Assembly (NCBI RefSeq): GCF_024502345.1
Contig: NZ_JALDNN010000001.1
Direction: 5' to 3' (one strand)
DNA from: Escherichia coli
GTDB lineage: Bacteria > Pseudomonadota > Gammaproteobacteria > Enterobacterales > Enterobacteriaceae
DNA length: 64,000 nucleotides
Made by a program: the position numbers and the translations under genes. Below are positions 4,038 to 51,205 of the stretch, in pieces. Positions within the stretch are counted from its first letter, which is position 1. The number at the start of each line of letters is the position of its first letter. Under the pieces are notes generated by a model. It made no database searches and was not told where the DNA came from. It worked only from the letters and a program-made list of their open reading frames with translations.

Positions 4038-4227
4038 TATTTTTGTTTATCAGGTGATGATTAAGCTGGAAATCAATAATAGCGGATGTTTATGAATGGG
4101 GGCGAAAGATAGCTTGTTGAAATGTGCGGTGTGGTTTGTAGGCATGATAAGACGCGCCAGCGTCGCATCAGGCATTGTGTACAGAGCGGCGGATGCGGCG
4201 AAAACGCCTTATCCGCCCGAATAAAAA

Positions 4228-19540: not shown

Positions 19541-19950
19541 GCCGGAGAGCGGCTCCGCCTTATCCGGCCGACATAGATTTATTCCTGTTCACGTACAGAT
19601 TGTCGGATGCGGCGTAAACGCCTTATCCGACCTGGATCCCCGTAGGCCGGACAAGACGCGCAGCGTCGCCTCCGGCATGGGTGCGCCGATTGTCGGATGC
19701 GGCGCAAACGCCTTATCCGACCTACATTTCCGTAGGCCGGACAAGACGCGTAAGCGTCGCCTCCGGCATGGTGCGCCGAATGTCGGATGCGGCGTTAACG
19801 CCTTATCCAACCTACACTCTCGTAGGCCGGACAAGACGCGCAGCGTCGCCTCCGGCATGGTGCGCCGATTGTCGGATGCGGCGTTAACGCCTTATCCGAC
19901 CTACACTCTCGTAGGCCGGACAAGACGCGCAGCGTCGCCTCCGGCATGGG
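19541..19950. repeat. REP/BIME array, ~4.5 tandem units of ~90 bp
   Basis: Units TGTCGGATGCGGCG.AAACGCCTTATCCGACCT...CGTAGGCCGGACAAGACGCG.AGCGTCGCCTCCGGCATGG recur at 19601, 19691, 19781, 19870; palindromic REP consensus; gabP-gabT intergenic. Confidence 0.85.
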
Positions 19951-33726: not shown

Positions 33727-36540
33727 ATGCCAATGGAGAGCTGTACGCAAATGAACGCCGTAGAAATTGAACAAGCCATCACGGATCTTGCAGAGCAACC
33801 CTTTGATCCTATAGAGTTTCCTTATGCTTTTCTTGAAGCCTTTGGTAACAAGGAAACGACTGTCAAACGCTTGCGCGCCGGTGCATCAAACAAATCCGAC
33901 TTGGGCGGTGTTCTCCAGAGCAATAATATTCACATTCTGACCTGCGAAGCAGGGACTGTGACTCAGATGTTGGCCGCGCTCAAGGCTAGCCCTGCGACAA
34001 CTAAAGCCAAGGCGAAGTTCATCCTGGCTACAGATGGCAAAGATTTCGAAGCTGAAGACCTCGTTAGCGGTCAGACTGTCGCTTGCGCCTTTAAAGACTT
34101 CCCAGATCACTTCGGCTTTTTCTTGCCATTAGCAGGCATTAGCACAGTTCGTCAGATTTGTGAGAACTCCTTTGACATTCGGGCCACTAGCCGGCTGAAT
34201 CGTCTGTATGTCGAGTTGTTGAAAGATAACCCTACCTGGGGGACGGCGGAGCGACGTCATGACATGAACAAATTCATGACTCGGCTGATCTTTTGTTTTT
34301 TCGCTGAGGATACTGACATTTTCGTGGGTAAGGGACGCTTTACTGAAACCGTTGCGCAGATGAGTACAAGAGATTCGTCGAATACGCATGAAGTTATCGC
34401 TACCTTGTTTCGTGCCATGAACACCAGTAACAAAGATAGAGCCGCCGCTGGCATCCCGCGCTGGGCCAATGAGTTTCCTTATGTCAACGGACGCTTGTTC
34501 TCTGGGAGTAATGATGTACCACTGTTCAGTAAGATTGCACGGTCTTATTTGCTCCATGTGGGTAGCCTTGACTGGACCAAGATTAATCCGGATATCTTTG
34601 GCTCGATGATTCAGGCAATTGCCGAAGACGAAGAACGCGGAGAGCTGGGGATGCATTACACCAGCGTACCCAACATCTTAAAAGTTTTGAATCCACTATT
34701 TCTGGACGACCTGCGCGCAAAGCTGGATGAGGCGGGTGACAATCCGCGTATGTTGCTTAACCTGCGTAAGCGCATTTCCCACATCCGTGTGTTCGACCCA
34801 GCGTGCGGTTCTGGTAACTTTTTGGTTATCGCGTACAAGGAAATGCGTGCCATTGAGGCCGAAATCAACAAGCGGCGTAATGAGCCAGATCGCGCCTCGG
34901 ATATCCCACTTACCAACTTTCGCGGGATTGAACTAAGAGATTTCCCGGCAGAGATCGCCCGCCTTGCGCTTGTTATCGCTGAGTACCAATGTGATGTACT
35001 GTACCGTGGGCTGCGGTTGGCCTTGGCTGAGCTTCTTCCGTTACGCAACGAAAATTGGATTACCTGTGGCAATGCACTACGGCTCGACTGGTTAAGAATT
35101 TGCCCGCCGACAGGAACAGGTGTGAAATTACATGGCGATGACTTGTTTGGATCTCCGCTTGATCAGGCAGAGATCGACTTTGAGAATGAAGGCGGAGAGA
35201 CATACATTTGCGGTAACCCACCATACCTTGGTTCAAAGTGGCAGACGGATGAACATAAAGCTGATCTTGGCACAATCTTTTCTGGTCGCGTGAAAAATTG
35301 GAAATCGCTCGATTATGTTGCTGGCTGGTTCCTGAAAGCCGCTGACTATGGTAGCCAGACAAGTTCCCAGGCTGCTTTTGTTGCCACTAATTCAATCAGC
35401 CAAGGGCAGCAAGTGTCGATTCTGTGGCCGGAAATATTCAAGGCAGGACAAGAGATTAGTTTCGCTTACACGAGCTTTAAGTGGTCGAACCTCGCTACTC
35501 ACAACGCCGGGGTCACAGTTGTTATCATCGGAATTTCTAACTGTGTAGGAAAGTCGCGACGCCTCTTTTCGGCTGGAGGAGACAATGGTGCGACGACGTG
35601 TCGTGAGGTGGAGCGCATCAACGCCTATTTGATCGCTGGCCCTAACATCATTGTGGAGGGGGACAGTTGTCCAGCCGACAGTCTTGCAACGATGCAGTTC
35701 GGTAACCACCCGTACTATGGTGCATCACTGATCTTTTCGAGATCTGAAGCACAGCAGATGATGTCTGTCGATCCGCGTACGGCGCGTTTTATTCGCCCAC
35801 TATATGGCTCCCAAGAGTTCATTTCCGCTGTGCCACGAGCCTGTCTATGGATTAACGACGATGAGGCTGACGAAGCGGGGACGATTCCTCTGATAGCTGA
35901 GCGTATGAGCGCCGTAGCAAGTGCTAGACGTGCAAAAAAACAAGACAAGGCAGCCCAGAAACTGGCTAAGACTCCATATCGCTTTCGCGACCAGCAGACA
36001 TCTACGAATCATATTCTTGTGGTTCCTCGAGTCAGTTCAGAGAACCGTCCTTGCTTGCCGGTTGGATTACTTGACTCTGACTCTATCGTTCAAGATCAAG
36101 CATTCGCCCTTTACGACGCTCCTCTCTGGAACCTCGCCATCATAGCGAGTCGCCTGCATCTAGTTTGGATCGCCACGGTTTGTGGAAAGTTAGAGACACG
36201 CTACCGCTATTCAAACACCCTCGGCTGGAATACTTTCCCGCTCCCAACACTCACTGAGAAAAATAAGGCAGACCTCACGCGCTGTGCAGAGGATATTCTT
36301 CTGACTAGGGAGCATCACTTCCCTGCAACCATTGCAGACCTTTATGACCCCGAGAAGATGCCAGACGACCTGCGTATTGTGCACGAGCGTAATGACGAAG
36401 TGCTTGAGCGTATTTACATTGGGCGCCGCTTTAAGAATGACACAGAGCGGCTTGAGAAGCTGTTTGACCTTTATACTAAGATGGCCGCTTCAACTGCATC
36501 GGGCAAAAGCAATAAACGTAAAGTGGGAACCAATGCATGA
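33727..36540 (+). CDS. MmeI/PglX-like gamma-class N6-adenine DNA methyltransferase, 937 aa; no recognisable N-terminal PD-ExK motif
   Basis: Motif X-like HYTS, motif I VFDPACGSGNFLV, motif IV ICGNPPYLG; other blocks (RLIFCFFAEDTDIF, FPYVNGRLF, AFVATNSISQGQQVSILWP, LETRYRYSNTLGWNTFP) resemble the MmeI/PglX family from memory. Start could be Met-9 (33751). Confidence 0.85.
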   Translation: MPMESCTQMNAVEIEQAITDLAEQPFDPIEFPYAFLEAFGNKETTVKRLRAGASNKSDLGGVLQSNNIHILTCEAGTVTQMLAALKASPATTKAKAKFILATDGKDFEAEDLVSGQTVACAFKDFPDHFGFFLPLAGISTVRQICENSFDIRATSRLNRLYVELLKDNPTWGTAERRHDMNKFMTRLIFCFFAEDTDIFVGKGRFTETVAQMSTRDSSNTHEVIATLFRAMNTSNKDRAAAGIPRWANEFPYVNGRLFSGSNDVPLFSKIARSYLLHVGSLDWTKINPDIFGSMIQAIAEDEERGELGMHYTSVPNILKVLNPLFLDDLRAKLDEAGDNPRMLLNLRKRISHIRVFDPACGSGNFLVIAYKEMRAIEAEINKRRNEPDRASDIPLTNFRGIELRDFPAEIARLALVIAEYQCDVLYRGLRLALAELLPLRNENWITCGNALRLDWLRICPPTGTGVKLHGDDLFGSPLDQAEIDFENEGGETYICGNPPYLGSKWQTDEHKADLGTIFSGRVKNWKSLDYVAGWFLKAADYGSQTSSQAAFVATNSISQGQQVSILWPEIFKAGQEISFAYTSFKWSNLATHNAGVTVVIIGISNCVGKSRRLFSAGGDNGATTCREVERINAYLIAGPNIIVEGDSCPADSLATMQFGNHPYYGASLIFSRSEAQQMMSVDPRTARFIRPLYGSQEFISAVPRACLWINDDEADEAGTIPLIAERMSAVASARRAKKQDKAAQKLAKTPYRFRDQQTSTNHILVVPRVSSENRPCLPVGLLDSDSIVQDQAFALYDAPLWNLAIIASRLHLVWIATVCGKLETRYRYSNTLGWNTFPLPTLTEKNKADLTRCAEDILLTREHHFPATIADLYDPEKMPDDLRIVHERNDEVLERIYIGRRFKNDTERLEKLFDLYTKMAASTASGKSNKRKVGTNA

Positions 36541-38582
36541 GCAACAAGATTAGATCTGTACCGTCAGTTTCTGTTACCTACTCACGCAACGGAGCATCGA
36601 CCAAGGCTAATTCTCTTGGGATGCGTCCTATGCAAGAAAGGGCTTATGAGAAGCGCGGAGAACAATATCTTCTCATAAAGTCGCCGCCCGCCTCTGGCAA
36701 GAGTCGTGCGCTGATGTTCGTCGCACTCGATAAACTCGCAAACCAGGGGATCAAACAGGCAATCATTGTCGTGCCGGAAAAATCTATCGGCGCGAGCTTC
36801 AACGATGAACCGCTATCGCAGTTTGGATTCTGGGCTGATTGGCATGTTGAACCTAAGTGGAATCTGTGCAACGCCCCCGGTAACGACAACGGCGGCAAGG
36901 TAAAATCTTTCGGCTCTTTTCTTGAAAGTAGCGACAAGGTGCTTGTTTGTACACACGCAACCTTTCGCTTCGCGGTCGATGCCTACGGTGTAGAGGCGTT
37001 TGACGATCGCCTGATCGCCGTCGATGAATTTCACCATGTGTCCGCTAACCCGGATAACAAGCTTGGTCAGCATCTGGGACAGTTCATTGAGCGTGACAAG
37101 ACGCACATCGTGGCCATGACCGGCTCCTACTTCCGGGGAGATGCGGAAGCCGTTTTGGCTCCTCAGGATGAGTCTAGGTTCGATACCGTCACCTACACCT
37201 ACTACGAACAACTCAACGGTTACGAATACCTCAAACAGCTTGATATCGGATACTTCTTTTATAGTGGATCATACATTGATGACATCCTCAATGTCCTCGA
37301 TCCTGACAAGAAAACGATTATCCATATTCCCAACGTCAATTCGCGCGAGAGTACGAAGGATAAAATTAAGGAGGTGGAGCACATTCTGAGCGAGCTTGGC
37401 GATTGGCAAGGTGCGGATCCTACGACTGGTTTTCAGCTAGTCAAGCGCCCCGATGGCCATGTGTTGCGTATTGCTGACCTGGTGGACCCAGCCAGTCAAG
37501 GCAAGATTCAGGAAAGCCTCCGAGCTCCAGAAATGAAGACAGACCGTGACTATGTAGACATCATTATTGCACTTGGTATGGCGAAGGAAGGTTTCGACTG
37601 GATCTGGTGCGAACATGCGCTGACTGTTGGCTACCGTGCCAGCCTGACTGAGATCGTGCAGATTATCGGTCGCGCTACTCGCGACGCGCCGGGTAAAACC
37701 CGCGCGAGATTTACTAACTTGATCGCCGAGCCCGACGCTGTAGAGGGCGCAGTAACTGAGGCAGTCAACGATACCTTGAAAGCTATCGCGGCGAGCCTGT
37801 TGATGGAACAGGTACTGGCTCCGCGCTTCGAGTTCAAGCCCAAGAATCCTGAAATCGGTCCGACTCCAGGCTTTGATTATGGTGATGGAGGATATGACCC
37901 GGATAGCTGCAATTTTGGTGTTAATGAGCAGACAGGGACGTATCAAATCGAGATTAAGGGACTTGCCGAGCCTAGGAGCAAAGAGGCGGCACGTATCTGC
38001 CAGGAAGATTTAAACGAAGTGATCGCGGCCTTTGTGCAGGATAAGCCCGCCATCGAACGAGGCCTGTTCGATGAAGAGCTGATCCCTGAAGAGTTAACAC
38101 AGGTTCGTATGGGTAAGATCATCAAAGAAAAGTATCCTGAACTTGATGCTGAAGATCAGGAGGCTGTACGTCAGCATGCTATCGCCGCCCTTAACCTCAC
38201 GCAGCAGGCCAAGCGTCTTGCTACCGGTGAAAACGATGGGACGCTCAATACTGCTCTTATTGACGGAGTGCGTCGCTTTGCAATGGATGTGCGCGATTTA
38301 GACATAGACCTTATCGACCGCATCAATCCCTTTGGTGAAGCCTACGCTATCCTTGCTAAGACGATGAGTGAAGACAGTTTGAAGCAGGTCGCGGCGGCCA
38401 TCTCGGCCAAGCGTACTTCGATCACGCCTGAAGATGCCAAGGTGATCGCCAAGCGTGCCGCTGAATTCAAACGTGAACGTGGGCGCCTCCCATCGTTAAC
38501 TTCGCTGGATGCTTGGGAAAAACACCTTGCTGAAGGTGCAGCCGCGTTTATGCGTTTTAGGGCGGAGGGACGTTATGAGTAA
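36537..38582 (+). CDS. SF2 DExH-box helicase (ResIII-like), 681 aa, with ~270 aa C-terminal region of unknown function
   Basis: Motif I PPASGKS, motif II AVDEFHHV, motif III MTGS, motif VI QIIGRATRD; ATG overlaps the methyltransferase stop (ATGA). Confidence 0.85.
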   Translation: MSNKIRSVPSVSVTYSRNGASTKANSLGMRPMQERAYEKRGEQYLLIKSPPASGKSRALMFVALDKLANQGIKQAIIVVPEKSIGASFNDEPLSQFGFWADWHVEPKWNLCNAPGNDNGGKVKSFGSFLESSDKVLVCTHATFRFAVDAYGVEAFDDRLIAVDEFHHVSANPDNKLGQHLGQFIERDKTHIVAMTGSYFRGDAEAVLAPQDESRFDTVTYTYYEQLNGYEYLKQLDIGYFFYSGSYIDDILNVLDPDKKTIIHIPNVNSRESTKDKIKEVEHILSELGDWQGADPTTGFQLVKRPDGHVLRIADLVDPASQGKIQESLRAPEMKTDRDYVDIIIALGMAKEGFDWIWCEHALTVGYRASLTEIVQIIGRATRDAPGKTRARFTNLIAEPDAVEGAVTEAVNDTLKAIAASLLMEQVLAPRFEFKPKNPEIGPTPGFDYGDGGYDPDSCNFGVNEQTGTYQIEIKGLAEPRSKEAARICQEDLNEVIAAFVQDKPAIERGLFDEELIPEELTQVRMGKIIKEKYPELDAEDQEAVRQHAIAALNLTQQAKRLATGENDGTLNTALIDGVRRFAMDVRDLDIDLIDRINPFGEAYAILAKTMSEDSLKQVAAAISAKRTSITPEDAKVIAKRAAEFKRERGRLPSLTSLDAWEKHLAEGAAAFMRFRAEGRYE

Positions 38583-39753
38583 TTCTGATTTAGACGATTT
38601 GGCGGCAGAACTTGCTGAATTTGCACCACCGGAGAAGAAAAAAGGACGTCCAGCCAGCGAGGAACGCATCATCGCAGGTTTTGAGGAAATCCAGCGCTTC
38701 GCTGACCAACATGGACGTGCGCCGCAACACGGCGAAGAGCGTGAGATCTTTGAGCGCCTCTATGCAGTGCGGCTCGACCGGCTACGCAGTCTCCCAGACT
38801 GCCGTGCCTTGCTAGAGCCGCTGGATCATCAAGGCTTATTGGCTGGAGGGGGTGATGTAGCGGAGTCAGCGGACGAAATTATCGATATCGATAATTTGGC
38901 TGCCGAACTGACGGATGTTTCCAGCGAGGATGATATCACAGTCTTGCGTCATGTTCGTGCTAGCGCCGAAAAGCGTGCTGTACAAGGGATCGCGGATCGC
39001 AAGCCGTGCGAGGATTTTGATACATTCAAACCGCTATTTGAACAGGTGCGCAGTGATCTAAGTTCAGGGTTAAGAGTGACCCGACCTTTTGGACAGTATG
39101 CAACGATTGAAGTGGGCCATTGGTTCATCCTGGATGGTCAAACGGCTTATGTGGCTGAGGAAGGTGAAGAGTTCGATTCTCCACAGGGGAAGAAAGATGC
39201 TCGGCTGCGTGTCATTTATTCGAATGGTACAGAAAGTAACCTGCTTCGGCTGTCATTAGTTCGTGCTTTGTATAAAGACGAAACAGCACGTCGAATTACC
39301 GATCCAGACATGGGGCCTTTATTCAGCGATGCTCTAGAAGAGAGCGATCTAGAAAGTGGCACCATTTATGTATTGCGTTCGCTATCAGATAACCCTTATG
39401 TGGCCGAACATCGTGATGTTATTCACAAGATTGGTGTGACTGGCGGCAAGGTCGAGACTCGTATTGCTAATGCTGAACACGATTCCACCTATCTGTTGGC
39501 GAAGGTAGAGGTGGTCGCTTCATACAAACTCGCAGGTATCAACCGCACCCGGATGGAAAACCTGTTTCACAGGTTGTTTGCACCCGCAAGGCTTAACATT
39601 ACCATTAACGACCGTTTCGGCCATCCAGTACAGCCCGAGGAATGGTTTCTCGTTCCGTTATTCGTTATCGATGAGGCTGTTGCACGTATTAAGGATGGTA
39701 GCATCATTGGGTATGTTTATGACCCCATGTCTGCGAAACTGGTGAAGGCATAG
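38575..39753 (+). CDS. GIY-YIG-like / T5orf172-like domain protein, ~392 aa (tentative domain call)
   Basis: GGAGG RBS then ATG at 38575 overlapping helicase stop (ATGAGTAA); C-terminal region GTIYVLRS...YVAEHRDVIHKIGVTGGKVETRIAN resembles GIY...YIG-R; acidic N-terminus. Confidence 0.65.
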   Translation: MSNSDLDDLAAELAEFAPPEKKKGRPASEERIIAGFEEIQRFADQHGRAPQHGEEREIFERLYAVRLDRLRSLPDCRALLEPLDHQGLLAGGGDVAESADEIIDIDNLAAELTDVSSEDDITVLRHVRASAEKRAVQGIADRKPCEDFDTFKPLFEQVRSDLSSGLRVTRPFGQYATIEVGHWFILDGQTAYVAEEGEEFDSPQGKKDARLRVIYSNGTESNLLRLSLVRALYKDETARRITDPDMGPLFSDALEESDLESGTIYVLRSLSDNPYVAEHRDVIHKIGVTGGKVETRIANAEHDSTYLLAKVEVVASYKLAGINRTRMENLFHRLFAPARLNITINDRFGHPVQPEEWFLVPLFVIDEAVARIKDGSIIGYVYDPMSAKLVKA

Positions 39754-39868
39754 TGAAGTGACACACTGAATTTGGCCACCTGTTCTGAGGTGAGTATATC
39801 ACCTCAGAACAGCACAGGAATAAAAGATACTGATTTGAATGTACCTATACTTTGCGATGTGAGGATCA

Positions 39869-40660
39869 ATGAATAGTAACCTGACCAAGATATGTTACCG
39901 TGGTGAGACTGGTGAAAGTGATCTAAGAACGTTGATACTTGGTGAGATTCTATATATCTCACTACGAGATGTTTTAATCACGCTGAATAAAGAAAATAGA
40001 GAAATCAACGCTGATTACACAGTAAAATCGATGGCTGGAATAATCAGGGCGCAATTACAGGCTCTTGACCCTGATGAGTATATTACTACAGATGCTGAAA
40101 ATGGTGTTTTTGAAGGTCAGAAAGAGATCTTCGTCACCCAGCCAGGTTTGTATCGAGTCATGTCAAGTGACCGAAGCGCTGCCGGTAAGCGCTTTCAAAA
40201 ATGGTTATTTCATGAAGTCATACCATCATTGACTAAGCATGGTGTATACCCGCCTCCGCCAGAAGCGAAAGGTTCAGCCCTTGCACAAATGGCTGAGATA
40301 CTTGCTCAAAATTCGCGAGCACTTGCTGACGCAATCCATAAACACGAAAAACTGGCCGAAGATGTCTCACAGGTTAAAGGTAAAGTTGCCAACGTTGAAA
40401 GCCGTCTGGAACTGTTAGAATCAGGTCCTTCCACTGTAACTGAAGATATGCATACTCTTGATAGCCGTCTCGCTTATTTGGACATGAGCATGGAAGAAAA
40501 GCATACCACCGAGACATTAGCCTGGTGCGAGAATATTTCTGTTCAAAATAACAGGAAGGTGATTCGCAAGGACTGTAGGGAGAATTCGCTCTTTACAACG
40601 CAGACTATCGACGAAGCAATCGCTATCATGACTGAAAGTGGAAAAATCACACCAAATTGA
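39869..40660 (+). CDS. Bro-N domain protein (phage antirepressor-like), 263 aa
   Basis: ...GLYRVMSSDRSAAGKRFQKWLFHEVIPSLTKHG matches the Bro-N/Ant hallmark (F..W...EV.PSI); coiled-coil-like C-terminal half. Confidence 0.7.
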   Translation: MNSNLTKICYRGETGESDLRTLILGEILYISLRDVLITLNKENREINADYTVKSMAGIIRAQLQALDPDEYITTDAENGVFEGQKEIFVTQPGLYRVMSSDRSAAGKRFQKWLFHEVIPSLTKHGVYPPPPEAKGSALAQMAEILAQNSRALADAIHKHEKLAEDVSQVKGKVANVESRLELLESGPSTVTEDMHTLDSRLAYLDMSMEEKHTTETLAWCENISVQNNRKVIRKDCRENSLFTTQTIDEAIAIMTESGKITPN

Positions 40661-40748
40661 AGATCCTGGGGTTCAGATTATCTGCTGGCTATCTTATTGA
40701 GCTCTGACGTAAAATAGGCCTTCCCACAAAGAGAAGGCCATTGCCGAC

Positions 40749-41375
40749 TTACAGATCGATTTGGCTACAGCCGAAGTTACGGTCTCCTTCACCAAACACT
40801 TTGCTTTCGACTTTGGTGAGGTAATCCAGTCGGGTTAACAGCGCTTGGTAGTTATGCTGGAAGTCAGCATTATTGGTATCCAGCACGTACTTACAGTTGT
40901 CAGGAAAATGGACCAGACCAGGGTGATCATCCAGTTTCAGTCCCAGGGCGCTGTACCACGCTCCCGTAATCATCCCTCTCAGGTTATCGTGCTGATCGTA
41001 ATCCCCGAGGTGGTAGTAAGCGTCTTTGTTGAACAACAGGCAAATGTGGTAGTGGCATTTACCTGACTCAGAATACTCTTTCGCCCATATAATAAATAAA
41101 GGGCAACGGTAGATGCGTTTACCTTCACGCTCCTTACGGGTACGGTCAGCCTCCAGTTTAGCTCTGAGGGAATCACGCATTCGGGATATCACCCCTGGTT
41201 CAAGATTAGGGAAACAGCAGATATTGTCTCCGTTATCGACTATCTTCGGATAATGCAGATCGACACGTACCGCCGTTAACCTGGGGTAACGGTTAGTCAA
41301 ATAACATAATAATTTTTTAATCTTGATCTGATATTCGAGGATATGTACTCCATGAGTACCTTGATATGTTTTCAT
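40749..41375 (-). CDS. YagK/YfjJ-family protein (inovirus Gp2-like)
   Basis: 208 aa ORF with Cys/His-rich stretch (CHYHICLLFNKDAYYH); family assignment from memory of CP4-57/CP4-6 yfjJ/yagK. Confidence 0.6.
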   Translation of the reverse strand: MKTYQGTHGVHILEYQIKIKKLLCYLTNRYPRLTAVRVDLHYPKIVDNGDNICCFPNLEPGVISRMRDSLRAKLEADRTRKEREGKRIYRCPLFIIWAKEYSESGKCHYHICLLFNKDAYYHLGDYDQHDNLRGMITGAWYSALGLKLDDHPGLVHFPDNCKYVLDTNNADFQHNYQALLTRLDYLTKVESKVFGEGDRNFGCSQIDL

Positions 41376-41646
41376 AATATATATCTGTATTTGGTCCTAC
41401 GGTCTATAGCAGACCGTACAGGGATGCCATACAGGCAGGGCTATTCCTGGTCACTGTTGTCGGTATATACTGGTATCAGATCTTAGTACGGATATACTGA
41501 TCTGATTACTACTCTTACTGGTGAATACAGGTAGTAAGAGTACACAATGCCATTATATAATACCTATCCAACATCTAAATTTGAGACGAAGGTAGCCCCA
41601 GCCTGTGATGGCTGTTAAAAAGTTACTCTGCAATTAGCTTCTGGAA

Positions 41647-42216
41647 TTAACCGATGATTCCGTTATTCCAGTGCCGCTTCACAGTCGATAAACTGATACT
41701 CAATTTCTTTGCAATCTCAGCCTGAGTAAATCCACCTTTCTTAAGTATTGTGATATCACGTCGGTATTTGCTTCCCTCCTTTCGTCCTAATTTCTTCTTA
41801 ACATGTCGATATCGGCTTTTAGTTGATTTCAGATTGTGAATGTCAATCGTATCCTGACGAGCAATCAAAAAAGACAAGCAACTTTCAGCAGAAGGCTCTA
41901 TCCTTGAAGCTGGATGGTAGCTGTAGATAAAAATTTCTTTTTGAAGGCAAAAAAATAAAATATTCTGTAAGTCCTCCACAGTTCTGCCAAGACAGCTTAG
42001 ATCTGGAATGACAAGCGTGTCCTGCCGGTTCATTTCATGATGAATCAATTGTCTGAGTAAACGTTGCTCTGAAACAACCTCTTTAATATCTACCTGCTCG
42101 ATCACAACATGTTCAGGTAGAATATTAAATTTTTGGCATATCTCAGCAAGTGAGTGATGATCTGTAATGCTTTCTTGCTGTTCGCTACTGCATATGGTGT
42201 AAAAAAATGAACGCAT
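41647..42216 (-). CDS. Serine recombinase-like protein (resolvase/invertase fold), possibly catalytically altered
   Basis: From internal Met: MRSFFYTICSSEQQ (cf. YARVSTxxQ), LVIPDLSCLGRTVEDL (cf. DRLGR), C-terminal HTH GFTQAEIAKKLSISLSTVKRH. Track ORF extends to 42345. Confidence 0.6.
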   Translation of the reverse strand: MRSFFYTICSSEQQESITDHHSLAEICQKFNILPEHVVIEQVDIKEVVSEQRLLRQLIHHEMNRQDTLVIPDLSCLGRTVEDLQNILFFCLQKEIFIYSYHPASRIEPSAESCLSFLIARQDTIDIHNLKSTKSRYRHVKKKLGRKEGSKYRRDITILKKGGFTQAEIAKKLSISLSTVKRHWNNGIIG

Positions 42217-42371
42217 CTGATGCACTCCGGTGTCATAAATTATTCTTTGATACCTGAACAATGTCATTTTGTATAAAAAATAACCAAAAATAGAGCGTGA
42301 TTGCCAGCGATACTTTGAGTGGTAAAGTAGTATTTTACCTCTCATAATTGTTTGTCCTTCTTTGTTACCTC

Positions 42372-43085
42372 TTAGGTTCTGCTCTCCTGTGAGTATGGGT
42401 TTATAATGATGTCATCCGGTGCATTAACACGGTTGGAAACATTTGTTTTACGGATCACTGGCAGCATAACCACCATCTCATTGACATGGTAAATATCAAT
42501 CCAACAAACAACCGGATAAGGCATAACAATCCCCTTTCTTCTAAGAACTTCATTTATCCCGAATATAATTAATTGGGATGTTGACAAGAGTAGAGTCTGC
42601 CCGACATCAAAGTAATAATCCTCAAAGGTTGTTCTATGAATAAGAATAATGTTTGAATATCCCAAGACACTTTGATGCTTTACATTAAAATGTCGTTGAT
42701 TGTAAATGTAAATGGCTTTTTCCATATCGTAATTTTCCCTCAGCGAGGATAGCCTTTCACGTATAACTGTTTTTTCATCTTTCCCCATGAATTCATCATT
42801 AGCGTTCAGTTTAAAGTAATCTGTAATTGGGATTTTTAATGGACTCATGATGTTCGTTTTCCAGATTAACGAACAGTATTCTTCCAGAGTCACTTCTTTT
42901 TCACCTCGATTTCGAATAATTCTTTCATTTATAGTGAATCTTAGTAGATCGTTTTTTAGCTCCTTTATTAGCCATTGATAGCGAAGACATTGCTCGAATA
43001 TATGTACCGTCAACGCCACAGAGTCTGATATGACTGAGGAAAGAGATTTATTATTCATCCTGGCATAATGCTCAAGAGTTTCCAT
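42372..43085 (-). CDS. Hypothetical protein, 237 aa, AT-rich
   Basis: Long ORF with no recognised motifs; between resolvase-like gene and alpA. Confidence 0.55.
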   Translation of the reverse strand: METLEHYARMNNKSLSSVISDSVALTVHIFEQCLRYQWLIKELKNDLLRFTINERIIRNRGEKEVTLEEYCSLIWKTNIMSPLKIPITDYFKLNANDEFMGKDEKTVIRERLSSLRENYDMEKAIYIYNQRHFNVKHQSVLGYSNIILIHRTTFEDYYFDVGQTLLLSTSQLIIFGINEVLRRKGIVMPYPVVCWIDIYHVNEMVVMLPVIRKTNVSNRVNAPDDIIINPYSQESRT

Positions 43086-43245
43086 CTCAGATTCATTTTT
43101 GTGCGTAAAAGTGTATTTTTTATTGGAAATGTTTTTTACTCCTTATAATTAACATTGCTATTAATTAATCCTGTTTGTAAAGGAGAAGTTTATTAATAAG
43201 TAAAAGTCCGCCTGCATCAAGACACGATGAAAATGTCTTCCTTTC

Positions 43246-43458
43246 TTACTCTATTGCCCGGGTTCGTTGTAAAATCCATTCGTCTATTTCAGCCTCTATC
43301 CAGCCGACAGATTGCAGCCCCAGACGACGTTGTTTCGGGAACGTTGGGTCATAGCGTGGCGATTTCGGATTGATCCAGTCATAGATTGTTGAACGTGACA
43401 AGCCCGTTTTGTCAATTACTGTAGAAAGACGAAGTATTTTAACATTAGATTTGTTCAT
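43246..43458 (-). CDS. alpA: AlpA-family prophage regulatory protein (excisionase-like HTH)
   Basis: 70 aa: MNKSNVKILRLSTVIDKTGLSRSTIYDWINPKSPRYDPTFPKQRRLGLQSVGWIEAEIDEWI, characteristic AlpA sequence. Confidence 0.85.
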   Translation of the reverse strand: MNKSNVKILRLSTVIDKTGLSRSTIYDWINPKSPRYDPTFPKQRRLGLQSVGWIEAEIDEWILQRTRAIE

Positions 43459-43649
43459 AGCTGATTACCTCAAATCGAAGTGCTCTGGATGATGTGAGAT
43501 TAGCTTTAAGGCAGCCAATCTAAAATGTATGTGCCAAAAAAACTTTTTTTTACGAACGGGAAATAAATATCCTATTGAAATTTAATGATTTTATTTTTTT
43601 TCTGTCGGGTCCATCAGAACGGTGTGAATTCAGTTACAGCCTTCCGGTC

Positions 43650-44570
43650 CGGTAATGGGCCAGTTATATGTTGAGTGGCTGCGCTTCGATGACTTCTGTT
43701 TCAGTGGGCTGGTCTATCTCCGACGTGCTGTGGCAGGTAGCGGTTCAGCAGTAGCCATTATTCGTTCTGCTCCGTCAGTACCGCACCCAGCAGCCGCAAG
43801 ATGCTCTCTTCATTGGGAAGATACCTACCACTGTCAACGCCAAGATTGTTGGCCGTTTCGTCCGCATCCCCTATTGGTCATTAATGTTGTCCGCTTTCCG
43901 CCGTTTCATCTCTTTGTTCAGGCGCTCCAGCGTGTTTGTGGAGTGGGTTTTTCACTTGGTGTGCTTTCGGGAGGCCGAAGGACGCCAGCACGTCTGCCTC
44001 TGCTTCGTCCATCACCCCGGTGACCGCCGGGTTGCTTTTCTCCCATTGACCGGCAACCTTGCACAGGTGGCATGGGCGCTTTTCTCGTCGGTCTGCACGA
44101 ACACCTGTTGCAGCGCCGCACGGACCACCGACTGGTTTGCACGGCTGACGCGGCTCAGCACGTTGCGCATGAAGTGGACCCGGCAGCGCTGCCAGCTGGC
44201 GGAGAACATCTGCCTATCGCCGCCTTCAGGCTCAGCAGGAAGGTCAGCCAGGATGCCGTTTATCCATGCTTCCTGGATAACCGCGTTGAGCGCCTTCTCA
44301 GACAATCTGTGGGCCTCCAGGAAGGGCGGGAAGTACGTCCCTTTAAGCAGCTTCGGAATACGCAGGTCCACAGCGTGCCGAGCTGGCGGGGACTGACGGT
44401 CACGATAGCCGTTGTGGTAGGTTTCGCGCTCATCGCTGCGCTAGTGGGCTCCGCGTTGATGTGCTGAGTGACATCTGCTTCCATAATGCAGTTGAGCATA
44501 AATTCGGTGAGTTCACGCAGAAAATCCTCGCCGCCGAGTAGCATCAGGGTGTTGCTGAATGTCATGCTGT
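43650..44570 (-). pseudogene. IS256-family (mutator-type) transposase, frameshifted remnant
   Basis: Reverse-strand ORF pieces ...LRELTEFMLNCIMEADVTQHINAEP..., ...RLSEKALNAVIQEAWINGI..., ...VHFMRNVLSRVSRANQS... resemble IS256-family blocks in different frames; GC-rich. Confidence 0.55.
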
Positions 44571-44784
44571 TGTCATTCCGAATTTACACCACGCCCTAAG
44601 ACTCTACCTTATTTTCTTTGCAAAGCAGGCTGCTTGTGCAAGTTGTACATGTAGTTAACAGGCAGTAAGTATGGCAAACCATTATTTCATGTCTTCACAT
44701 CTGGTTCTTCATTCAGTTAAGTAGTAAAAATGAAAGGGATGTCAGAGCAAGAACAGATGACGTTGTGTAACTGACCAATGAAGG

Positions 44785-45558
44785 ATGATATGGAATATGC
44801 TTGATATTTTTTGCTCGGAATTTGAAGAAAAAAGAAACAAATTAAAGACCTACCTTGAAAGCTCGGGATTTCTTTATAGGCATTCTATCATCAAAAAAAT
44901 GTCTCTTTTGGATGGTATGGATGAAAGCCAGAATTTTGAGTTGTTGCAGGCGAAACAATATAATCGTGATGATATACAATGCTGGGAGTATATTAGCTCT
45001 AAGTGGACCGTCGTTCCTATTATGATGGGTTCGCAAAGCCTTAAACACTTTTTTACATGGAATTTTAAGGCCGCTGGGATATTTCAGCGATATGGAAAGG
45101 ATATGTGGGATATCAACAAGATAATTGCAGTTAAATCTTTATTGTTTGCTAGTTCAGTCTTAGGTAGTTGCCTTGGGGTTGCAGGCTATGGCCCGTTGCT
45201 GCCTTCGGAGCTTGCATTAGACAAAAAGAAGCTAACTAAGAAAAAACAGTCAGCAAGAATGGGAGGGATATCTAAGGCTGAATTATATCTCCCGATAAAA
45301 GAAGAGACGATAAGATTGCTCCACCAAAATGTTCCTGTGGATGGTAGATGGAAAAATAAAACGGTTGCAGCAAAGGCAATAGAGGCAGATTTAGTCATCT
45401 TTGTACAAAATTTGAAATCTCAAAACCAAAATCTGGATCTTAATGAAGAAGATATTATTACAGTCGTCAAACGTTGGGAACGCAATGATGAAAGAGTAAA
45501 GGCTGCATTTGAGGGAACGGTGAAGCAAAAAATCTCTGGCAAGAAGGGCTCGGGTTAG
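44785..45558 (+). CDS. Hypothetical protein, 257 aa, AT-rich, integrase-proximal
   Basis: Long ORF with no recognised motifs; AAGGA RBS favours the second ATG (44797); convergent with integrase. Confidence 0.65.
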   Translation: MIWNMLDIFCSEFEEKRNKLKTYLESSGFLYRHSIIKKMSLLDGMDESQNFELLQAKQYNRDDIQCWEYISSKWTVVPIMMGSQSLKHFFTWNFKAAGIFQRYGKDMWDINKIIAVKSLLFASSVLGSCLGVAGYGPLLPSELALDKKKLTKKKQSARMGGISKAELYLPIKEETIRLLHQNVPVDGRWKNKTVAAKAIEADLVIFVQNLKSQNQNLDLNEEDIITVVKRWERNDERVKAAFEGTVKQKISGKKGSG

Positions 45559-45587
45559 AACTTCTCATTATTTTTTCCAAAAATAAG

Positions 45588-45612
45588 AACCGCGCCTTTG
45601 AAGGCGCGGATT
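45588..45612 (-). terminator. Probable intrinsic terminator downstream of the integrase gene
   Basis: Hairpin CCGCGCCTT-TGAA-AAGGCGCGG followed (reverse strand) by a T-rich run. Confidence 0.5.
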
Positions 45613-45620
45613 AAGTAGAA

Positions 45621-46862
45621 TCAAACAACAAGTTTTAATGCACCGGCACTAGATTCTACCATGCTTCCTTTATCTGCTCTTTTAACAAAATCAGCCCACC
45701 ATTGCATCATCGGCCTACGTTGCTCAAGATAATCACTGCGGTTATAAGCGCGACGTACCTCATTTTTGTCTACATGAGCAAGTGCGGCTTCAATGACATC
45801 AGGAGGAAATCCTTGCTCATTGAGGGCTGTACTGGCGATAGAACGCAAACCATGTGAAACCAGCACTCCCCCTAAACCGGCACGCTTGAGTGCAGCATTC
45901 ACGGTTTGACTGTTCATCGGCTGAGTGGGCTTAATGCGGCTTGGAAAAATAAAATCTCGGCCACCACTGAGCGGCTTCATCATTTCCAGAATAGCCAGAG
46001 CCCCATCAGATAATGGAACGGTATGGTCCCGGTTCATTTTCATTCGGGCTGCTGGAATTTTCCATTCGTTAGCATCAAAATCGATCTCATTCCACCGAGC
46101 TTCTGCGGCTTCTGCGGGGCGGGTGATGGTGAGAAGTTGCCACATGAACAGACACCGCGTAGACAGGCTGATACTGGCCGTACGCATAGTTTGCATCAAC
46201 TGAGGCAACTGATCCGGACGAATACTGGGCATGTTCTTTTTCTGAGGTTTCTCGAAGGCTTTGCCAATATTAACACTGGGAACTGCATCAATCAGGCCCG
46301 TGTTTTGGGCATAAATCATGACTTCATTGATCCGTTGGCAAAGACGGCGGACAGTTTCCAGTGCTCCTCGGGCCTGAACGGGTTGAACGGCTTGAACCAG
46401 TGTATGGGCTTTAATATCTGTAACGCTTACGTTGCCAATTGCGGGAAATATATCTCTTTCAAGCGAACGCCAGATATCATCAGCATAGTCCTCGGTTACA
46501 CTGGCTTTCTTCACATTCCACCAACGCTCGGCAACTAACAAGAAAGTGTTGGTTTTGGCCTCCTGAGAATTTCTTATCTGTTCTTTTTGGTATTCCTGAG
46601 GATCGATTCCTTTTGCCAGTAATACTTTGGATTCAGCTCTGAGCTTACGAGCATCGGAAAGCGAGACAGCAGGATAGGAACCGAAGCTCTGTTTAGTTCG
46701 CTGTTTTGTCAGAGGTCGGTAATAACGGAATTGCCAGAGCTTACTGCCACTGGATTTGATTAGCAGCGTCAGTCCGTCACCATCATACAACTGATAATCG
46801 GCATCTTTAGATTTGGCTGCTTTGATTTCCGTATCCGTTAACGGCTTGGTTTTTCTTGCCAC
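45621..46862 (-). CDS. intA: P4/CP4-57-type tyrosine integrase (IntA-like)
   Basis: 413 aa: MARKTKPLTDTEIKAAKSKDADYQLYDGDGLTLLIKSSGSKLWQFRYY...; C-terminal catalytic region HGLRSIASTA...AHVDKNEVRRAYNRSDY; adjacent to ssrA 3' end. Confidence 0.93.
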   Translation of the reverse strand: MARKTKPLTDTEIKAAKSKDADYQLYDGDGLTLLIKSSGSKLWQFRYYRPLTKQRTKQSFGSYPAVSLSDARKLRAESKVLLAKGIDPQEYQKEQIRNSQEAKTNTFLLVAERWWNVKKASVTEDYADDIWRSLERDIFPAIGNVSVTDIKAHTLVQAVQPVQARGALETVRRLCQRINEVMIYAQNTGLIDAVPSVNIGKAFEKPQKKNMPSIRPDQLPQLMQTMRTASISLSTRCLFMWQLLTITRPAEAAEARWNEIDFDANEWKIPAARMKMNRDHTVPLSDGALAILEMMKPLSGGRDFIFPSRIKPTQPMNSQTVNAALKRAGLGGVLVSHGLRSIASTALNEQGFPPDVIEAALAHVDKNEVRRAYNRSDYLEQRRPMMQWWADFVKRADKGSMVESSAGALKLVV

Positions 46863-47044
46863 GGTGGAGTCTCCATGCTTTTAGGCCCAACAAAGACCAT
46901 AGATCTTTTCGTTGGGCCTATCAATGGGCCTAAAACAATTAGCTTAGGTAGGATCAAATCAGATAGCGCTGGACATAAAAAAGCCCGTAAGTCGTTGTGA
47001 CTACGGGTTTTTTGGTTTTTCTTGGATTGCTTTGGAATAAAATT

Positions 47045-47407
47045 TGGTGGAGCTGGCGGGAGTTGAACCCGCGTCCGAAATTCCTACATCCTCGGTACTA
47101 CATGCTTAGTCAGTCTTTACATTCGCTTGCCAGCTGCGGACGGACACGCCACTAACAAACTAGCCTGATTAAGTTTTAACGCTTCAACCCCAGGCAGGGC
47201 TTCCACGCGATCTCTTTTGGGTTTGACCTCTCTTGATCCCCGTCCTAAGAGCGGAGGCTAGGGAGAGAGGGCTCTAAGCAGGTTATTAAGCTGCTAAAGC
47301 GTAGTTTTCGTCGTTTGCGACTATTTTTTGCGGCTTTTTACGAGGCCAACCGCCCCTCGGCATGCACCTTGGGTTTCGCAAATCCCGTCGAATCCAGAAT
47401 CAGCCCC
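47045..47407 (-). ncRNA. ssrA: tmRNA (SsrA), 363 nt
   Basis: Reverse complement begins GGGGCTGATTCTGGATTCGACGGG and ends GGTTCAACTCCCGCCAGCTCCACCA; terminator-like hairpin follows at ~46975-47015. Confidence 0.97.
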
Positions 47408-47621
47408 AATGTGTAAAGGTAAGTATACCAGATTTATGAGCGCCATGACCAGCCTCAATGGCGTTATCGTTAAAGATTTAGCACCCATGTAGCCTGATTT
47501 TTATTCGATTAAGCAATGGAATGGCAACATTTGTGTCGGATGTGATAACCAATAAGATGTTCATTCGCGCCGCCGGAGAGGGAGGCGCGGTGAGGAACTG
47601 GTCAATAATTGGAGTGCAGGT

Positions 47622-48104
47622 TTAACGGTGGGCGTTTTTCATGATACGCGCTTTATCCACCTGCCATTCGCGCTCTTTGATATCTGAACGTTTATCGTGC
47701 TGTTTCTTACCTTTGGCGACGCCGATTTTCACTTTGCACCAGGCATTTTTCCAGTACAGGGAGAGCGCCACTACGGTATAGCCTTCTCGATTGACGCGAC
47801 CGTACAATGAGTCCAGTTCGCGCTGGTTGAGAAGTAACTTGCGGGTACGGGTAGGGTCGCACACCACATGCGTGGAGGCCACGGCCATTGGCGTGATGTT
47901 AGCGCCAAACAGAAATGCCTCTCCGTCACGCAGAAGGACGTAGCTGTCGCTGATATTGGCTTTTCCTGCGCGCAGGGATTTAACCTCCCAGCCTTGCAGG
48001 GCAAGTCCCGCTTCGAACTCTTCTTCGATAAAGTATTCGTGACGGGCGCGCTTGTTAAGCGCGATGGTCGCTGAACCAGGTTTATGTGCTTTTTTCTTCG
48101 TCAT
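47622..48104 (-). CDS. smpB: SsrA-binding protein
   Basis: 160 aa [37 protein letters not shown]... Confidence 0.96.
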
Positions 48105-48235
48105 AAGCGTCGTGAATCATCGGTAATCTGAAATCGAAAACACCCCATATCAATCCTGCGGGGGACAAGGCTCTATCTTAGCATGAACCCGATGTTACCC
48201 AGCGCCGGGATAGCGTTTTTTTTACAGCAGGATAA

Positions 48236-48712
48236 ATGATATTATTTGTTGGATTTTTGTTGATGGAAATTGTTATGCCTCAGATTAGCCGGACCGCACT
48301 GGTACCCTACAGCGCGGAGCAAATGTATCAGTTAGTGAATGACGTTCAGTCTTATCCTCAGTTTTTGCCGGGTTGTACCGGAAGTCGGATTCTGGAGTCC
48401 ACTCCTGGGCAGATGACTGCGGCGGTAGATGTCTCTAAGGCTGGGATCAGCAAAACGTTTACTACCCGCAACCAGTTGACCAGTAACCAAAGTATTCTTA
48501 TGAATCTGGTGGATGGGCCGTTCAAGAAATTGATTGGTGGATGGAAGTTTACGCCGCTGAGCCAGGAGGCGTGTCGTATCGAGTTTCATCTCGACTTTGA
48601 GTTTACCAATAAGTTGATTGAACTCGCCTTTGGTCGCGTGTTTAAAGAGCTGGCGTCTAATATGGTCCAGGCTTTTACGGTTCGTGCGAAAGAGGTTTAC
48701 AGTGCCAGGTAA
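48236..48712 (+). CDS. ratA: Ribosome association toxin RatA (SRPBCC fold)
   Basis: 158 aa ORF; conserved position next to smpB. Confidence 0.9.
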
Positions 48713-48992
48713 AATTGCCGTTGAGGTGGCTTATGCGCTACCTGAGAAGCAGTACCTGCAGCGAGTGACGCTGCAGAAGGGCGCGACGGTTGAAGAAGCT
48801 ATTCGCGCCAGTGGCTTGCTGGAATTGCGTACCGATATCGATTTAACTAAAAACAAAGTCGGCATTTACAGCCGTCCGGCAAAACTAAGCGATAGTGTGC
48901 ATGATGGCGATCGGGTGGAGATTTATCGCCCTCTCATTGCCGATCCGAAAGAGCTTCGCAGGCAACGAGCAGAAAAATCAGCGAATAAATAA
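48702..48992 (+). CDS. ratB: RatB (YfjF), 96 aa, GTG start
   Basis: In-frame GTG at 48702 gives [20 protein letters not shown]...; track ORF extended upstream to an out-of-context ATG. Confidence 0.85.
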
Positions 48993-49053
48993 CAGACAGA
49001 AAAAAGGTGCTCATTGAGCACCTTTTTTAACGTCTTTGAGAGCAACTTTATTA

Positions 49054-49395
49054 TTAGTTACCACTCAGCGCAGGTTTGTTATCAATATTGGTCAACACAC
49101 CGCTACTGTTAAAGGTTAGCGTCAGCGTTTGCTGCGTTACACCTTCATGACCTGGTTGCTGGCGGAAGACATAGAACCAGGTATTCGTACCAAATGGATC
49201 GGACATCAGCGGTGTACCCAATGCGTACGCAACTTGTTGTTGCGTCATGCCAACACGTATTTTGGATACGTCGTTAGCGGTCAGATAGTTCCCCTGGTTG
49301 ATGTCAGGACGGTAAACCACTCGCTCCAGAGTGGAACAGCCTGCGGTCAACATCAATAGTACTGCTGCTGCAGCAGTCAGCGTTTTACAGCGCAT
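49054..49395 (-). CDS. bamE: Outer membrane lipoprotein BamE (SmpA)
   Basis: 113 aa; lipobox LTAGC. Confidence 0.95.
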
Positions 49396-49543
49396 AGTGA
49401 TTTGATTCCTTTTCGGGCCCGAGCAGTACGTGGCTCATCTGTAATATGCCGATGATAATAGACCTTTCATCACTTTAAAACCTTTTGCTTTCCAGTCTTA
49501 CGGCGTTTTGCTGTTTACTCTGACCGTGAAGCAGGGAAAAAGT

Positions 49544-51205
49544 TTACGCCGCAAGCAGTTCTTTCGCATTCGCCAGTGTGTTACGTGTGACTTCACTGCC
49601 ACCAAGCAGGCGCGCCAGCTCTTGTAACCGCGCTTTTTTATCCAGAGATTGCATATGCGTTTCTGTCATCGCACCATCGGTTTCTTTGCTGACAAAATAG
49701 TGTTGATGACCACATCCCGCGACTTGTGGCAGGTGGGTAACACACATCACCTGAGTTGATTCGCCGAGTTGACGCAGCAGTTTGCCGACAACTGCCGCTG
49801 TTGGACCGCTAATCCCTACATCCACTTCATCAAAAATCAGTGCCGGGGTTTCCATTTTACGCGCCGTGATGACCTGAATTGCCAATGCGATGCGGGACAA
49901 TTCACCACCGGATGCGACTTTGGCAATAGGCTGCATTGGCTGACCTGGGTTGGTGGTTACCCGAAACTCAATACGATCGGCGCCGTCAGCGCCCAGGTGA
50001 TGCTCGTCAAATTTGACATCAATCGTAAACTGCCCATGCGGCATTGAGAGCGCATGCATACTGTCGGTGATCAGCTGTGCAAGTTCTTCTGCATAATGCT
50101 GGCGTTGCTGGTGTAATGCGCGCGCCGTTTCCAGTGCCTGCTGATGATGTTTCGTTACCGCCAGCGCGAGCGTTTCTTGTGAGTCGGCCTGATCGTCCAG
50201 TTGCTGCTGTTCTTCCAGTAGCGACTGGTAATACTGTGGCAATGTCTCAGGGCTGACGTGATGTTTACGTGCCAGCGAAATCTGTTTTGAGATGCGCTGT
50301 TCAAGTTCAAACAGTCGGTTGGGATCGAGATCCAGACGATCGCAGTAGTGGCGCAGTTCGTCGCTGGCTTCAACAATCTGGATGGTAGCTTCTTCCAGCA
50401 TATCAAGTACGCCGGACAGTTTGCTGTCCATGCCAATCAATTCGCTAACCAGTTGTTTAGCCGTGTAAAGCTGACTTTGCAGGTTTGCGTCTTCACCGTC
50501 GGCCATTAATGCCAATGCATTCTGGCTGGTGGTCAGCAATTGACCGCTGTTCGCCAGACGTTTGTACTCTTCGTCGATTTGCTCAAACTCTCCGGGCTGC
50601 GGATTAAATTCGTTAAGTTCTTTTAATTGGTATTGCAGCAGTTCCGCACGGGCAGCGCGTTCCTGACTTAACTGTTGATGATGCGCGAGGTCACGGCAGC
50701 TTTGATGCCACAACTGATAACGTGCGGTCATTTCCTGGAGTAGAGAGGTTTCATTGGCATAGCCATCAAGCAGGAACTTTTGGTGCTCGGGTTTGGTGAG
50801 TAACTGATGAGCGTGCTGACCATGGATCTGAATCAGCAACTGACCCAGTTCGCGCAGTTGTGACAGAGGAACAGCTGTACCGTTGATGAAACCACGGGAG
50901 CGACCATCGCTGCTGATCACGCGACGAAGCAAACATTCATGCCCGTCTTCAAGCTGGTTTTCTTCCAGCCAGCGCAGAGCCGCTGGCGTATCTTTCAGAG
51001 AAAAACGGGCGCACAGGTCAGCGCGAGCAGCGCCGGTACGCACCATGTCGGCTTCAGCGCGACCACCGAGACAAAGACCGAGGGCATCTATTGCAATAGA
51101 TTTACCCGCGCCGGTCTCGCCAGTTATTACGGTCATGCCGCTATGAAAATCAATCTCAAGCTCACGAACGATAGCAAAGTTGCTGATGGTCAGTTGTGCC
51201 AACAT
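49544..51205 (-). CDS. recN: DNA repair protein RecN (SMC-like ATPase)
   Basis: 553 aa; Walker A GETGAGKS. Confidence 0.96.

Follow-up and report, generated by a model that had tools for sequence, protein, structure and literature searches.

An ISEae1-like IS256-family fossil in a CP4-57-like island at ssrA of Escherichia coli

Introduction

How much of an insertion sequence (IS) is left in a GC-rich block that interrupts an AT-rich genomic island of Escherichia coli, and how did it reach its present state? The block lies in a stretch of 64,000 nt of contig NZ_JALDNN010000001.1 (assembly GCF_024502345.1), which we call the window. An initial annotation, made from the sequence alone, had described positions 43650-44570 as the debris of an IS256-family transposase gene with multiple frameshifts. 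We are highly confident that one ISEae1-like element of the IS256 family inserted here and decayed in place to leave the block (43604-44608), and that it sits between genes in a CP4-57-like island at ssrA.

Identity and extent of the element

Several matches identify the debris as coming from a Mutator/IS256-type transposase. First, the minus-strand ORF at 44012-44371 matches the Pfam family Transposase_mut (PF00872; E = 3.5e-17; 62.8 bits, with a cut-off of 21). (This ORF holds the block that the initial annotation quoted, VHFMRNVLSRVSRANQS; its translation includes SASWQRCRVHFMRNVLSRVSRANQSVV.) Second, the conceptual protein of a longer allele, from strain 2013C-4282, scores 322 bits against NCBIfam NF033543 ("IS256 family transposase"; the cut-off is 150) and is about 91% identical to transposases annotated as "IS256-like element ISEae1 family" on plasmids of Enterobacter, Klebsiella, and E. 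coli. Third, tblastn with an intact ISEae1-family transposase as the query places amino acids 3-45 at 44574-44446 (frame -2), 46-110 at 44446-44252 (frame -1), and 224-400 at 44254-43670 (frame -1). Stops and poorly matching stretches within the last of these alignments imply additional frame changes there. As the initial annotation had it, blocks of the family are spread over minus-strand ORFs of different frames: the ORFs at 44260-44565, 44012-44371, and 43881-44015 lie in three distinct frames. Its picture of GC-rich debris in an AT-rich island also stands, with 56.8% GC in the remnant vs. 39.6% in the surrounding island.

The limits of the element are set by two imperfect terminal inverted repeats. 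Terminal repeats in the IS256 family carry a subterminal TGTAAA motif (PMC7780238). The left inverted repeat (44576-44608, minus strand) is 97% identical to that of ISEae1, and its TGTAAA is intact. The right inverted repeat (43604-43640, minus strand) is degenerate: GTCGGGTCCATCAGAACGGTGTGAATTCAGTTACAG aligns to the right end of ISEae1, GTCGAGTCCGTCAAGGTGGTGTAAATTCAGTTACAG, but 7 of 36 positions differ from the reference, and TGTAAA is mutated to TGTGAA. A generic inverted-repeat search missed these repeats, whose degeneracy and offset are too great for it; they are recognized only by alignment to intact copies. The transposase is encoded on the minus strand. In total, the remnant measures 1005 nt, vs. 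1372 nt for the intact reference. The range given in the initial annotation covers the coding debris, but the true ends are about 45 nt farther out on each side.

Four-way and affine-gap pairwise alignments show the remnant to be collinear, end to end, with intact ISEae1 copies. Our intact references were L004, which is annotated as "IS256-like element ISEae1 family," and L005, which is annotated only as "IS256 family transposase." Nucleotide identity to a 1372-nt ISEae1-family copy is 87.3% over 942 aligned nt, and ranges from 76% to 97% by segment. By the ISfinder convention, roughly 95% or more nucleotide identity defines one IS. Since 87% is well under that, the remnant is not ISEae1 itself. 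Judging from these alignments, it is a member of the IS256 family by descent only, and it is best named ISEae1-like.

Directly outside the two ends are putative target-site duplications, TTTTTTTCT on the side of the right repeat (43595-43603) and TTATTTTCT on the side of the left repeat (44609-44617). Members of the IS256 family make target duplications of 8-9 bp. The two flanks match at 8 of 9 bases, in T-rich DNA, which is suggestive of a 9-bp duplication. The unoccupied target would read TTTTATTTTTTTTCTTTGCAAAG. We looked for an empty site in three ways: a distant-mode search with the joined flanks found no adjacent flanks in 5426 complete E. coli genomes; a gapped pattern for the exact junction found none in one genome per GTDB species; and a pattern for the right flank found four metagenome contigs, all of which are occupied. 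With no empty site in these searches, the boundaries and the proposed target duplication rest on the inverted repeats and the 8-of-9 match.

Genomic context

On one side of the remnant is a gene for an AlpA-family regulator (alpA-like; 43246-43458, minus strand). On the other side is a plus-strand ORF of 257 amino acids (44785-45558; WP_016246229.1, "hypothetical protein"), which has no Pfam family and is conserved in all carriers of the island. Next, toward ssrA, is intA (45621-46862). The gene beside intA is ssrA itself (the tmRNA, with the tag ANDENYALAA; 47045-47407, minus strand), and this direct adjacency identifies a CP4-57-type ssrA island. The order in the island is intA, the 257-aa ORF, the remnant, the AlpA-family regulator, YagM-, YagL-, and YagK-like genes, and then the genes for BRO-N, GIY-YIG/T5orf172, the DEAD-box helicase, and the MmeI-like enzyme.

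Some other features of the region are worth describing. In both KCJ3K291 and 873.10, homology to the window ends within ssrA, at about 47077-47089, which is about 33-45 nt from its 3' end. In KCJ3K291, another integrase module comes next, as would be expected if islands had integrated in tandem at the same attachment site. In a search for direct repeats across the window, the 3' end of ssrA turned up only once. The cargo at 33727-39753 looks like a defense cluster: it encodes an MmeI-like fused methyltransferase/restriction enzyme (937 amino acids, with all five Pfam domains of MmeI), a DEAD/ResIII (DEAD-box) helicase (681 amino acids), and a GIY-YIG/T5orf172 protein (414 amino acids). After it comes a BRO-N protein (39869-40660). 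Elsewhere in the window, 19573-19949 contains four tandem units of about 90 nt with palindromes of the type GCCGGATGCGGCG...CGCCTTATCCG, and there is a related copy at 4159-4218. These look like intergenic repeats of the REP/BIME type.

Lesions in the transposase gene

To describe the damage, we follow the minus-strand gene from its 5' end, with small lesions placed by alignment to intact ISEae1. At 44575/44576, 78 nt are missing, which removes the leader, the ribosome-binding site, the ATG, and the next codon. (A deletion of 71 of these 78 nt is common to the allele of 2013C-4282, where the ATG survives.) The alignments and tblastn identify 44252-44575 as N-terminal debris, corresponding to amino acids 3-110. 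This segment contains a -1 nt frameshift at 44446/44447, a TAG nonsense codon at 44441-44443, a -2 nt frameshift at 44389/44390, and a +2 nt frameshift at 44371-44372. At 44251/44252, 284 nt are missing and amino acids 111-205 are gone. A 28-nt island of transposase sequence (44224-44251, amino acids 206-214) separates this deletion from another at 44223/44224, where the loss of 57 nt removes amino acids 215-233.

Debris corresponding to amino acids 234-344 follows at 43899-44223, with -1 nt frameshifts at 44214/44215 and 44064/44065 and a +1 nt frameshift at 43952. The gene is then interrupted at 43832-43898 by 67 nt of foreign sequence, which replaces 7 nt of the IS. Beyond it, 43641-43831 holds the C-terminal codons (about amino acids 345-401) and a short 3' untranslated stretch, as identified by tblastn and by alignment to L004, L005, and the 2013C-4282 allele. 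This last segment has a -1 nt frameshift in a C-run (43817/43818), a TAA nonsense codon that replaces E369 (43758-43760), and a -5 nt frameshift (43732/43733). The totals are deletions of 78, 284, 57, and 5 nt, seven indels of 1-2 nt, and two nonsense codons. The term "multiply frameshifted" in the initial annotation understated the damage, most of which is due to the three large deletions. Together these remove 419 nt of the 1372-nt element.

To locate the catalytic residues, we relied on the structure of the ISCth4 transposase (6xg8), which aligns to the reference transposase over 355 residues (E = 1.7e-48). The active site of ISCth4 is formed by D175, D241, and E348, with a CxxH motif at C262 and H265 (PMC7780238). 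The corresponding residues in the reference are D161, D227, and E333, with CxxH at C248-H251. In the window, the deletions of 284 nt and 57 nt removed D161 and D227, respectively, and the start codon is lost as well. E333 (in the motif STNTLERLNKE) and the CxxH block (RCRVHFMRNVLSRV..., the VHFMRNVL motif of the initial annotation) are retained in the debris at 43899-44223. An active element would have the DDE triad and CxxH in one frame. Here the triad is broken, so the element is inactive, and at least nine further lesions break the frame. The gene was rightly judged to be non-functional. The remnant now has no function: its transposase cannot be made, and the genomes that carry it have no intact copy as a source.

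A scar of an IS21-family element

The foreign sequence that interrupts the gene shows that the block is not IS256-derived throughout. Its interior is otherwise collinear with ISEae1, but 67 nt at 43832-43898 (minus strand) come from an element of the IS21 family (ISEc62-like): they are its extreme right end, with the TGTCAACGCC tip on the outside and the stop codon of istB at the inner limit. Many E. coli records give a megablast match to a segment of about 90 nt (43821-43910), and in them it falls at the istB-proximal end of an IS21-like element. The scar aligns, from the TGTCAACGCC tip, to a copy of the "ISEc62 family" on plasmid pETEC_73 of E. coli E24377A. The opposite end of that plasmid element has the inverted tip, TGTCAGCGCC, and a TCCAC duplication flanks the element, which confirms the tip of the scar. 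The scar is also present in the ST536 allele (L006, from a mussel isolate), where 85 nt match the ends of IS21-like elements in over 100 records at 95.4% identity. The scar is absent from the longer allele (locus L002 of strain 2013C-4282, and contig L010).

The insert has a terminal sequence with a TG tip, as IS21-family elements do, but it does not have istA and istB between two ends: only 67-79 nt are left, and homology ends at the istB stop codon. On this comparison, it is a scar and not an element. The inner junction of the scar falls within a microhomology, CGCCGTTTCATC (43899-43910). This sequence resembles both CGCCATTTCATC of IS21 and CGCCGTTTCACC of the IS256-family element, and the latter was originally 7 nt past the insertion point. 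The geometry fits the loss of a body of about 2 kb from the IS21 element by recombination between short repeats, as we infer it.

The scar in the window also differs from the one in the ST536 allele by a clustered change (43860-43870 vs. 3261-3277 of L006): within 17 nt there are a net loss of 6 nt and about six substitutions. Since it is the ST536 form that agrees with the IS21 references, the form in the window is derived. The change may be a complex indel. In every RefSeq record that carries it, the 67-nt solo end is unannotated.

Decay and allelic history

Among 5426 complete E. coli genomes, just six contain most of the remnant. The form in the window is found at 100% identity in E. coli KCJ3K291 and at 98.7-99.9% identity in four other complete E. 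coli chromosomes. In the complete chromosomes, RefSeq annotates two "transposase" pseudogenes, which are described as frameshifted and incomplete.

The substitutions in the remnant indicate that it has decayed neutrally. There are 58 substitutions that are private to the window's copy (about five of them are alignment artifacts in the scar), and they are spread evenly over the codon positions (19, 19, and 18 at the first, second, and third positions). Furthermore, 34 of the private substitutions are GC-to-AT and 13 are AT-to-GC. In the two intact copies, private substitutions are concentrated at third positions (4/6/20 and 4/2/36), and the differences between L004 and L005 are distributed as 9/9/78. 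The even spread and the bias toward AT imply that the sequence has been without coding constraint for a long time.

How are the two alleles related? In strain 2013C-4282, the longer allele occupies the same site, and its frameshifted gene of 1210 bp is annotated as "IS256 family transposase." The insertion point and flanks of the longer allele (L002 and L010) are identical to those in the window, and so is the 33-nt left inverted repeat (100% identity). The last 129 nt at the 3' end are 96% identical between the two alleles, while they are only 76-84% identical to the plasmid copies of ISEae1. The alleles also have in common a 71-nt deletion in the leader, between GATGG repeats. The common site, flanks, left repeat, 3' end, and leader deletion point to one ancestral insertion. 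(A 64-nt insertion in the longer allele, CAATAAAACAGTCCAGGAAAACATCCCCCCCCCATTACAGTCTTATATCATTGG, at about 4675-4765 of L002 and also in L010, is absent from intact ISEae1; it falls in a region that the window's copy has lost.)

The interiors of the two alleles (43733-44575) do not fit as simply. They are 82-93% identical, which is no closer than either one is to the plasmid copies of ISEae1. Just 13 sites group the two alleles together, and 11 of these are in 43608-43725. Also, the changes that are private to the 2013C-4282 allele are biased toward third positions (5/5/17). Given this mosaic, a history of one insertion and then divergence needs an added step, which is probably gene conversion. 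The simplest reading, plausible but unproven, is that a different ISEae1-like copy, itself functional, converted the interior of one allele.

Alternatively, related IS256-family elements could have inserted twice, independently, at one spot, once to give the short allele and once to give the long one. The modest identity of the interiors, with almost no sites there that group the alleles, is what two insertions would predict. However, they would not account for the identical insertion point and flanking bases, the identical left repeats, the near-identity of the 3' ends, or the common leader deletion. Since gene conversion is also the more economical account of the mosaic, we consider independent insertions to be very unlikely.

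From the single-insertion reading, the following order of events can be inferred. The IS would have inserted by copy-out/paste-in transposition, giving a 9-bp duplication. A slippage deletion between the GATGG repeats would then have removed most of the 5' leader, before the two alleles split. In the window's lineage, an IS21-like element would have landed right after the KRR codons, and recombination between two copies of CGCCnTTTCA would have deleted nearly all of it, along with 7 nt of the host IS. Later deletions and point mutations would have built up neutrally, with the bias from GC to AT.

Could the remnant still move or encode a protein?

In principle, the remnant could be a non-autonomous element that is still mobile, akin to a MITE, if an ISEae1-like transposase were supplied in trans (for example, from a plasmid). 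It still has an inverted repeat at each end, of which the left is nearly unchanged with its TGTAAA intact, and elements of the ISEae1 family circulate on plasmids of E. coli and Enterobacter. But each of the five genomes with the window's form has exactly one copy, and all observed copies of the remnant are at one site. Also, the differences in the right repeat include one within the TGTAAA motif, and nothing else in the 64-kb window is ISEae1-like. We think that continued mobility is highly improbable.

We also considered whether any of three plus-strand ORFs (43655-44023, 43884-44396, and 44072-44467) might be a real gene that lies over the dead transposase. These ORFs are 122-170 amino acids long, and the longest open stretch, at 213 codons, is reached by just 13 of 500 mononucleotide shuffles. 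However, none of the three has a significant match in Pfam, and RefSeq calls none of them. The first of them runs across the IS21 scar; the second begins within the scar and crosses both of the large deletion junctions; and the third spans three small indels as well as these two junctions. Because they span junctions that were made by decay, these ORFs cannot predate the decay. Long antisense frames are also to be expected: owing to a GC content of 79% at third positions, the antisense strand of intact ISEae1 copies has open frames of 214 and 208 codons. (In the frame in question, the first base lies under the third position of the sense codon, and most of the ORF at 44072-44467 is in that frame.) A promoter scan of 43200-44900 found no promoter-like site, a scan of the same region for terminators found terminator-like sites at the rate expected by chance, and an Rfam scan of 38000-50000 found ssrA and sub-threshold chance matches, with nothing in the remnant. 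A real gene here is extremely unlikely. The plus-strand ORFs are artifacts, as had been proposed when they were first listed.

Finally, that the frameshifts are errors of sequencing or assembly and the strain's transposase is intact has a negligible probability: indel errors do arise in homopolymers, and a C-run has indeed lost 1 nt here, but 419 nt are absent and 67 nt of foreign IS21 sequence are present. Moreover, the same lesions recur, identically, in three metagenome contigs and in five complete genomes that were assembled independently, which excludes the explanation. The initial annotation had proposed alignment to IS256-family references, with recovery of an intact frame after error correction as the outcome that would count against decay. 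The alignments to intact ISEae1 copies defined the ends (43604 and 44608) and allowed the lesions to be counted. No intact frame can be recovered, because the missing 419 of 1372 nt include two of the three catalytic residues.

Discussion

The remnant can be compared to several known elements. ISEae1 itself, of the IS256 family, is found on plasmids of Enterobacter, Klebsiella, and E. coli that carry blaIMI (PMC10100371). The remnant resembles ISEae1 in having the left repeat, leader, single transposase gene, and right repeat in the same order, with TGTAAA in the left repeat. It differs in its length (1005 vs. 1372 nt) and in having lost its start codon and two catalytic aspartates. Unlike the plasmid copies, it bears an IS21 scar, is chromosomal, and is present in a single copy.

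ISCth4 and IS256 have experimentally characterized transposases of the copy-out/paste-in type. The ancestral protein of the remnant has the spacing D-66-D-106-E, with CxxH 21 residues after the second aspartate, which is identical or nearly so to the spacing in the ISCth4 transposase. The relationship is distant, though, and the window's copy retains only the glutamate and CxxH of the active site. (The transposases of ISCth4 and IS256 are themselves just 26% identical; PMC7780238.) As for the IS21-family element of the "ISEc62 family" on pETEC_73, the scar corresponds to its outermost 67 nt on the istB side and lacks istA, istB, and the second end.

Another E. coli element of the IS256 family, IS1414, carries the gene for the EAST1 toxin (astA) inside its transposase gene. 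The window has no astA-like ORF. We rejected a link to astA after a tblastn search with an EAST1 peptide gave hits at the level of chance, the best of them with E = 0.66 (window) and E = 0.31 (longer allele).

More speculatively, incoming active ISEae1-like copies might have overwritten the interior of the fossil in at least one lineage of the island, so that the dead IS served as a target for recombination. We regard this as possible but rather doubtful. If true, a dead chromosomal IS would record past traffic of plasmids or ISs. A weaker variant is that the remnant has been kept in every known copy of the island since its ends might give regulatory signals to alpA or to the gene for the 257-aa protein.

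Overall, the remnant is an ordinary IS fossil of a kind that is already known, and RefSeq already labels its transposase as a pseudogene. Its significance is very small, as decayed ISs are commonplace in genomic islands. The practical value is in annotation: the element can be given ends at 43604-44608 and described as ISEae1-like, the IS21 scar is so far unannotated, and the plus-strand ORFs should not be counted as genes. This ssrA island is rare (6 of 5426 complete E. coli genomes), and the fossil, which occurs in two allelic states and in all known copies of this part of the island, could serve to mark its lineages.
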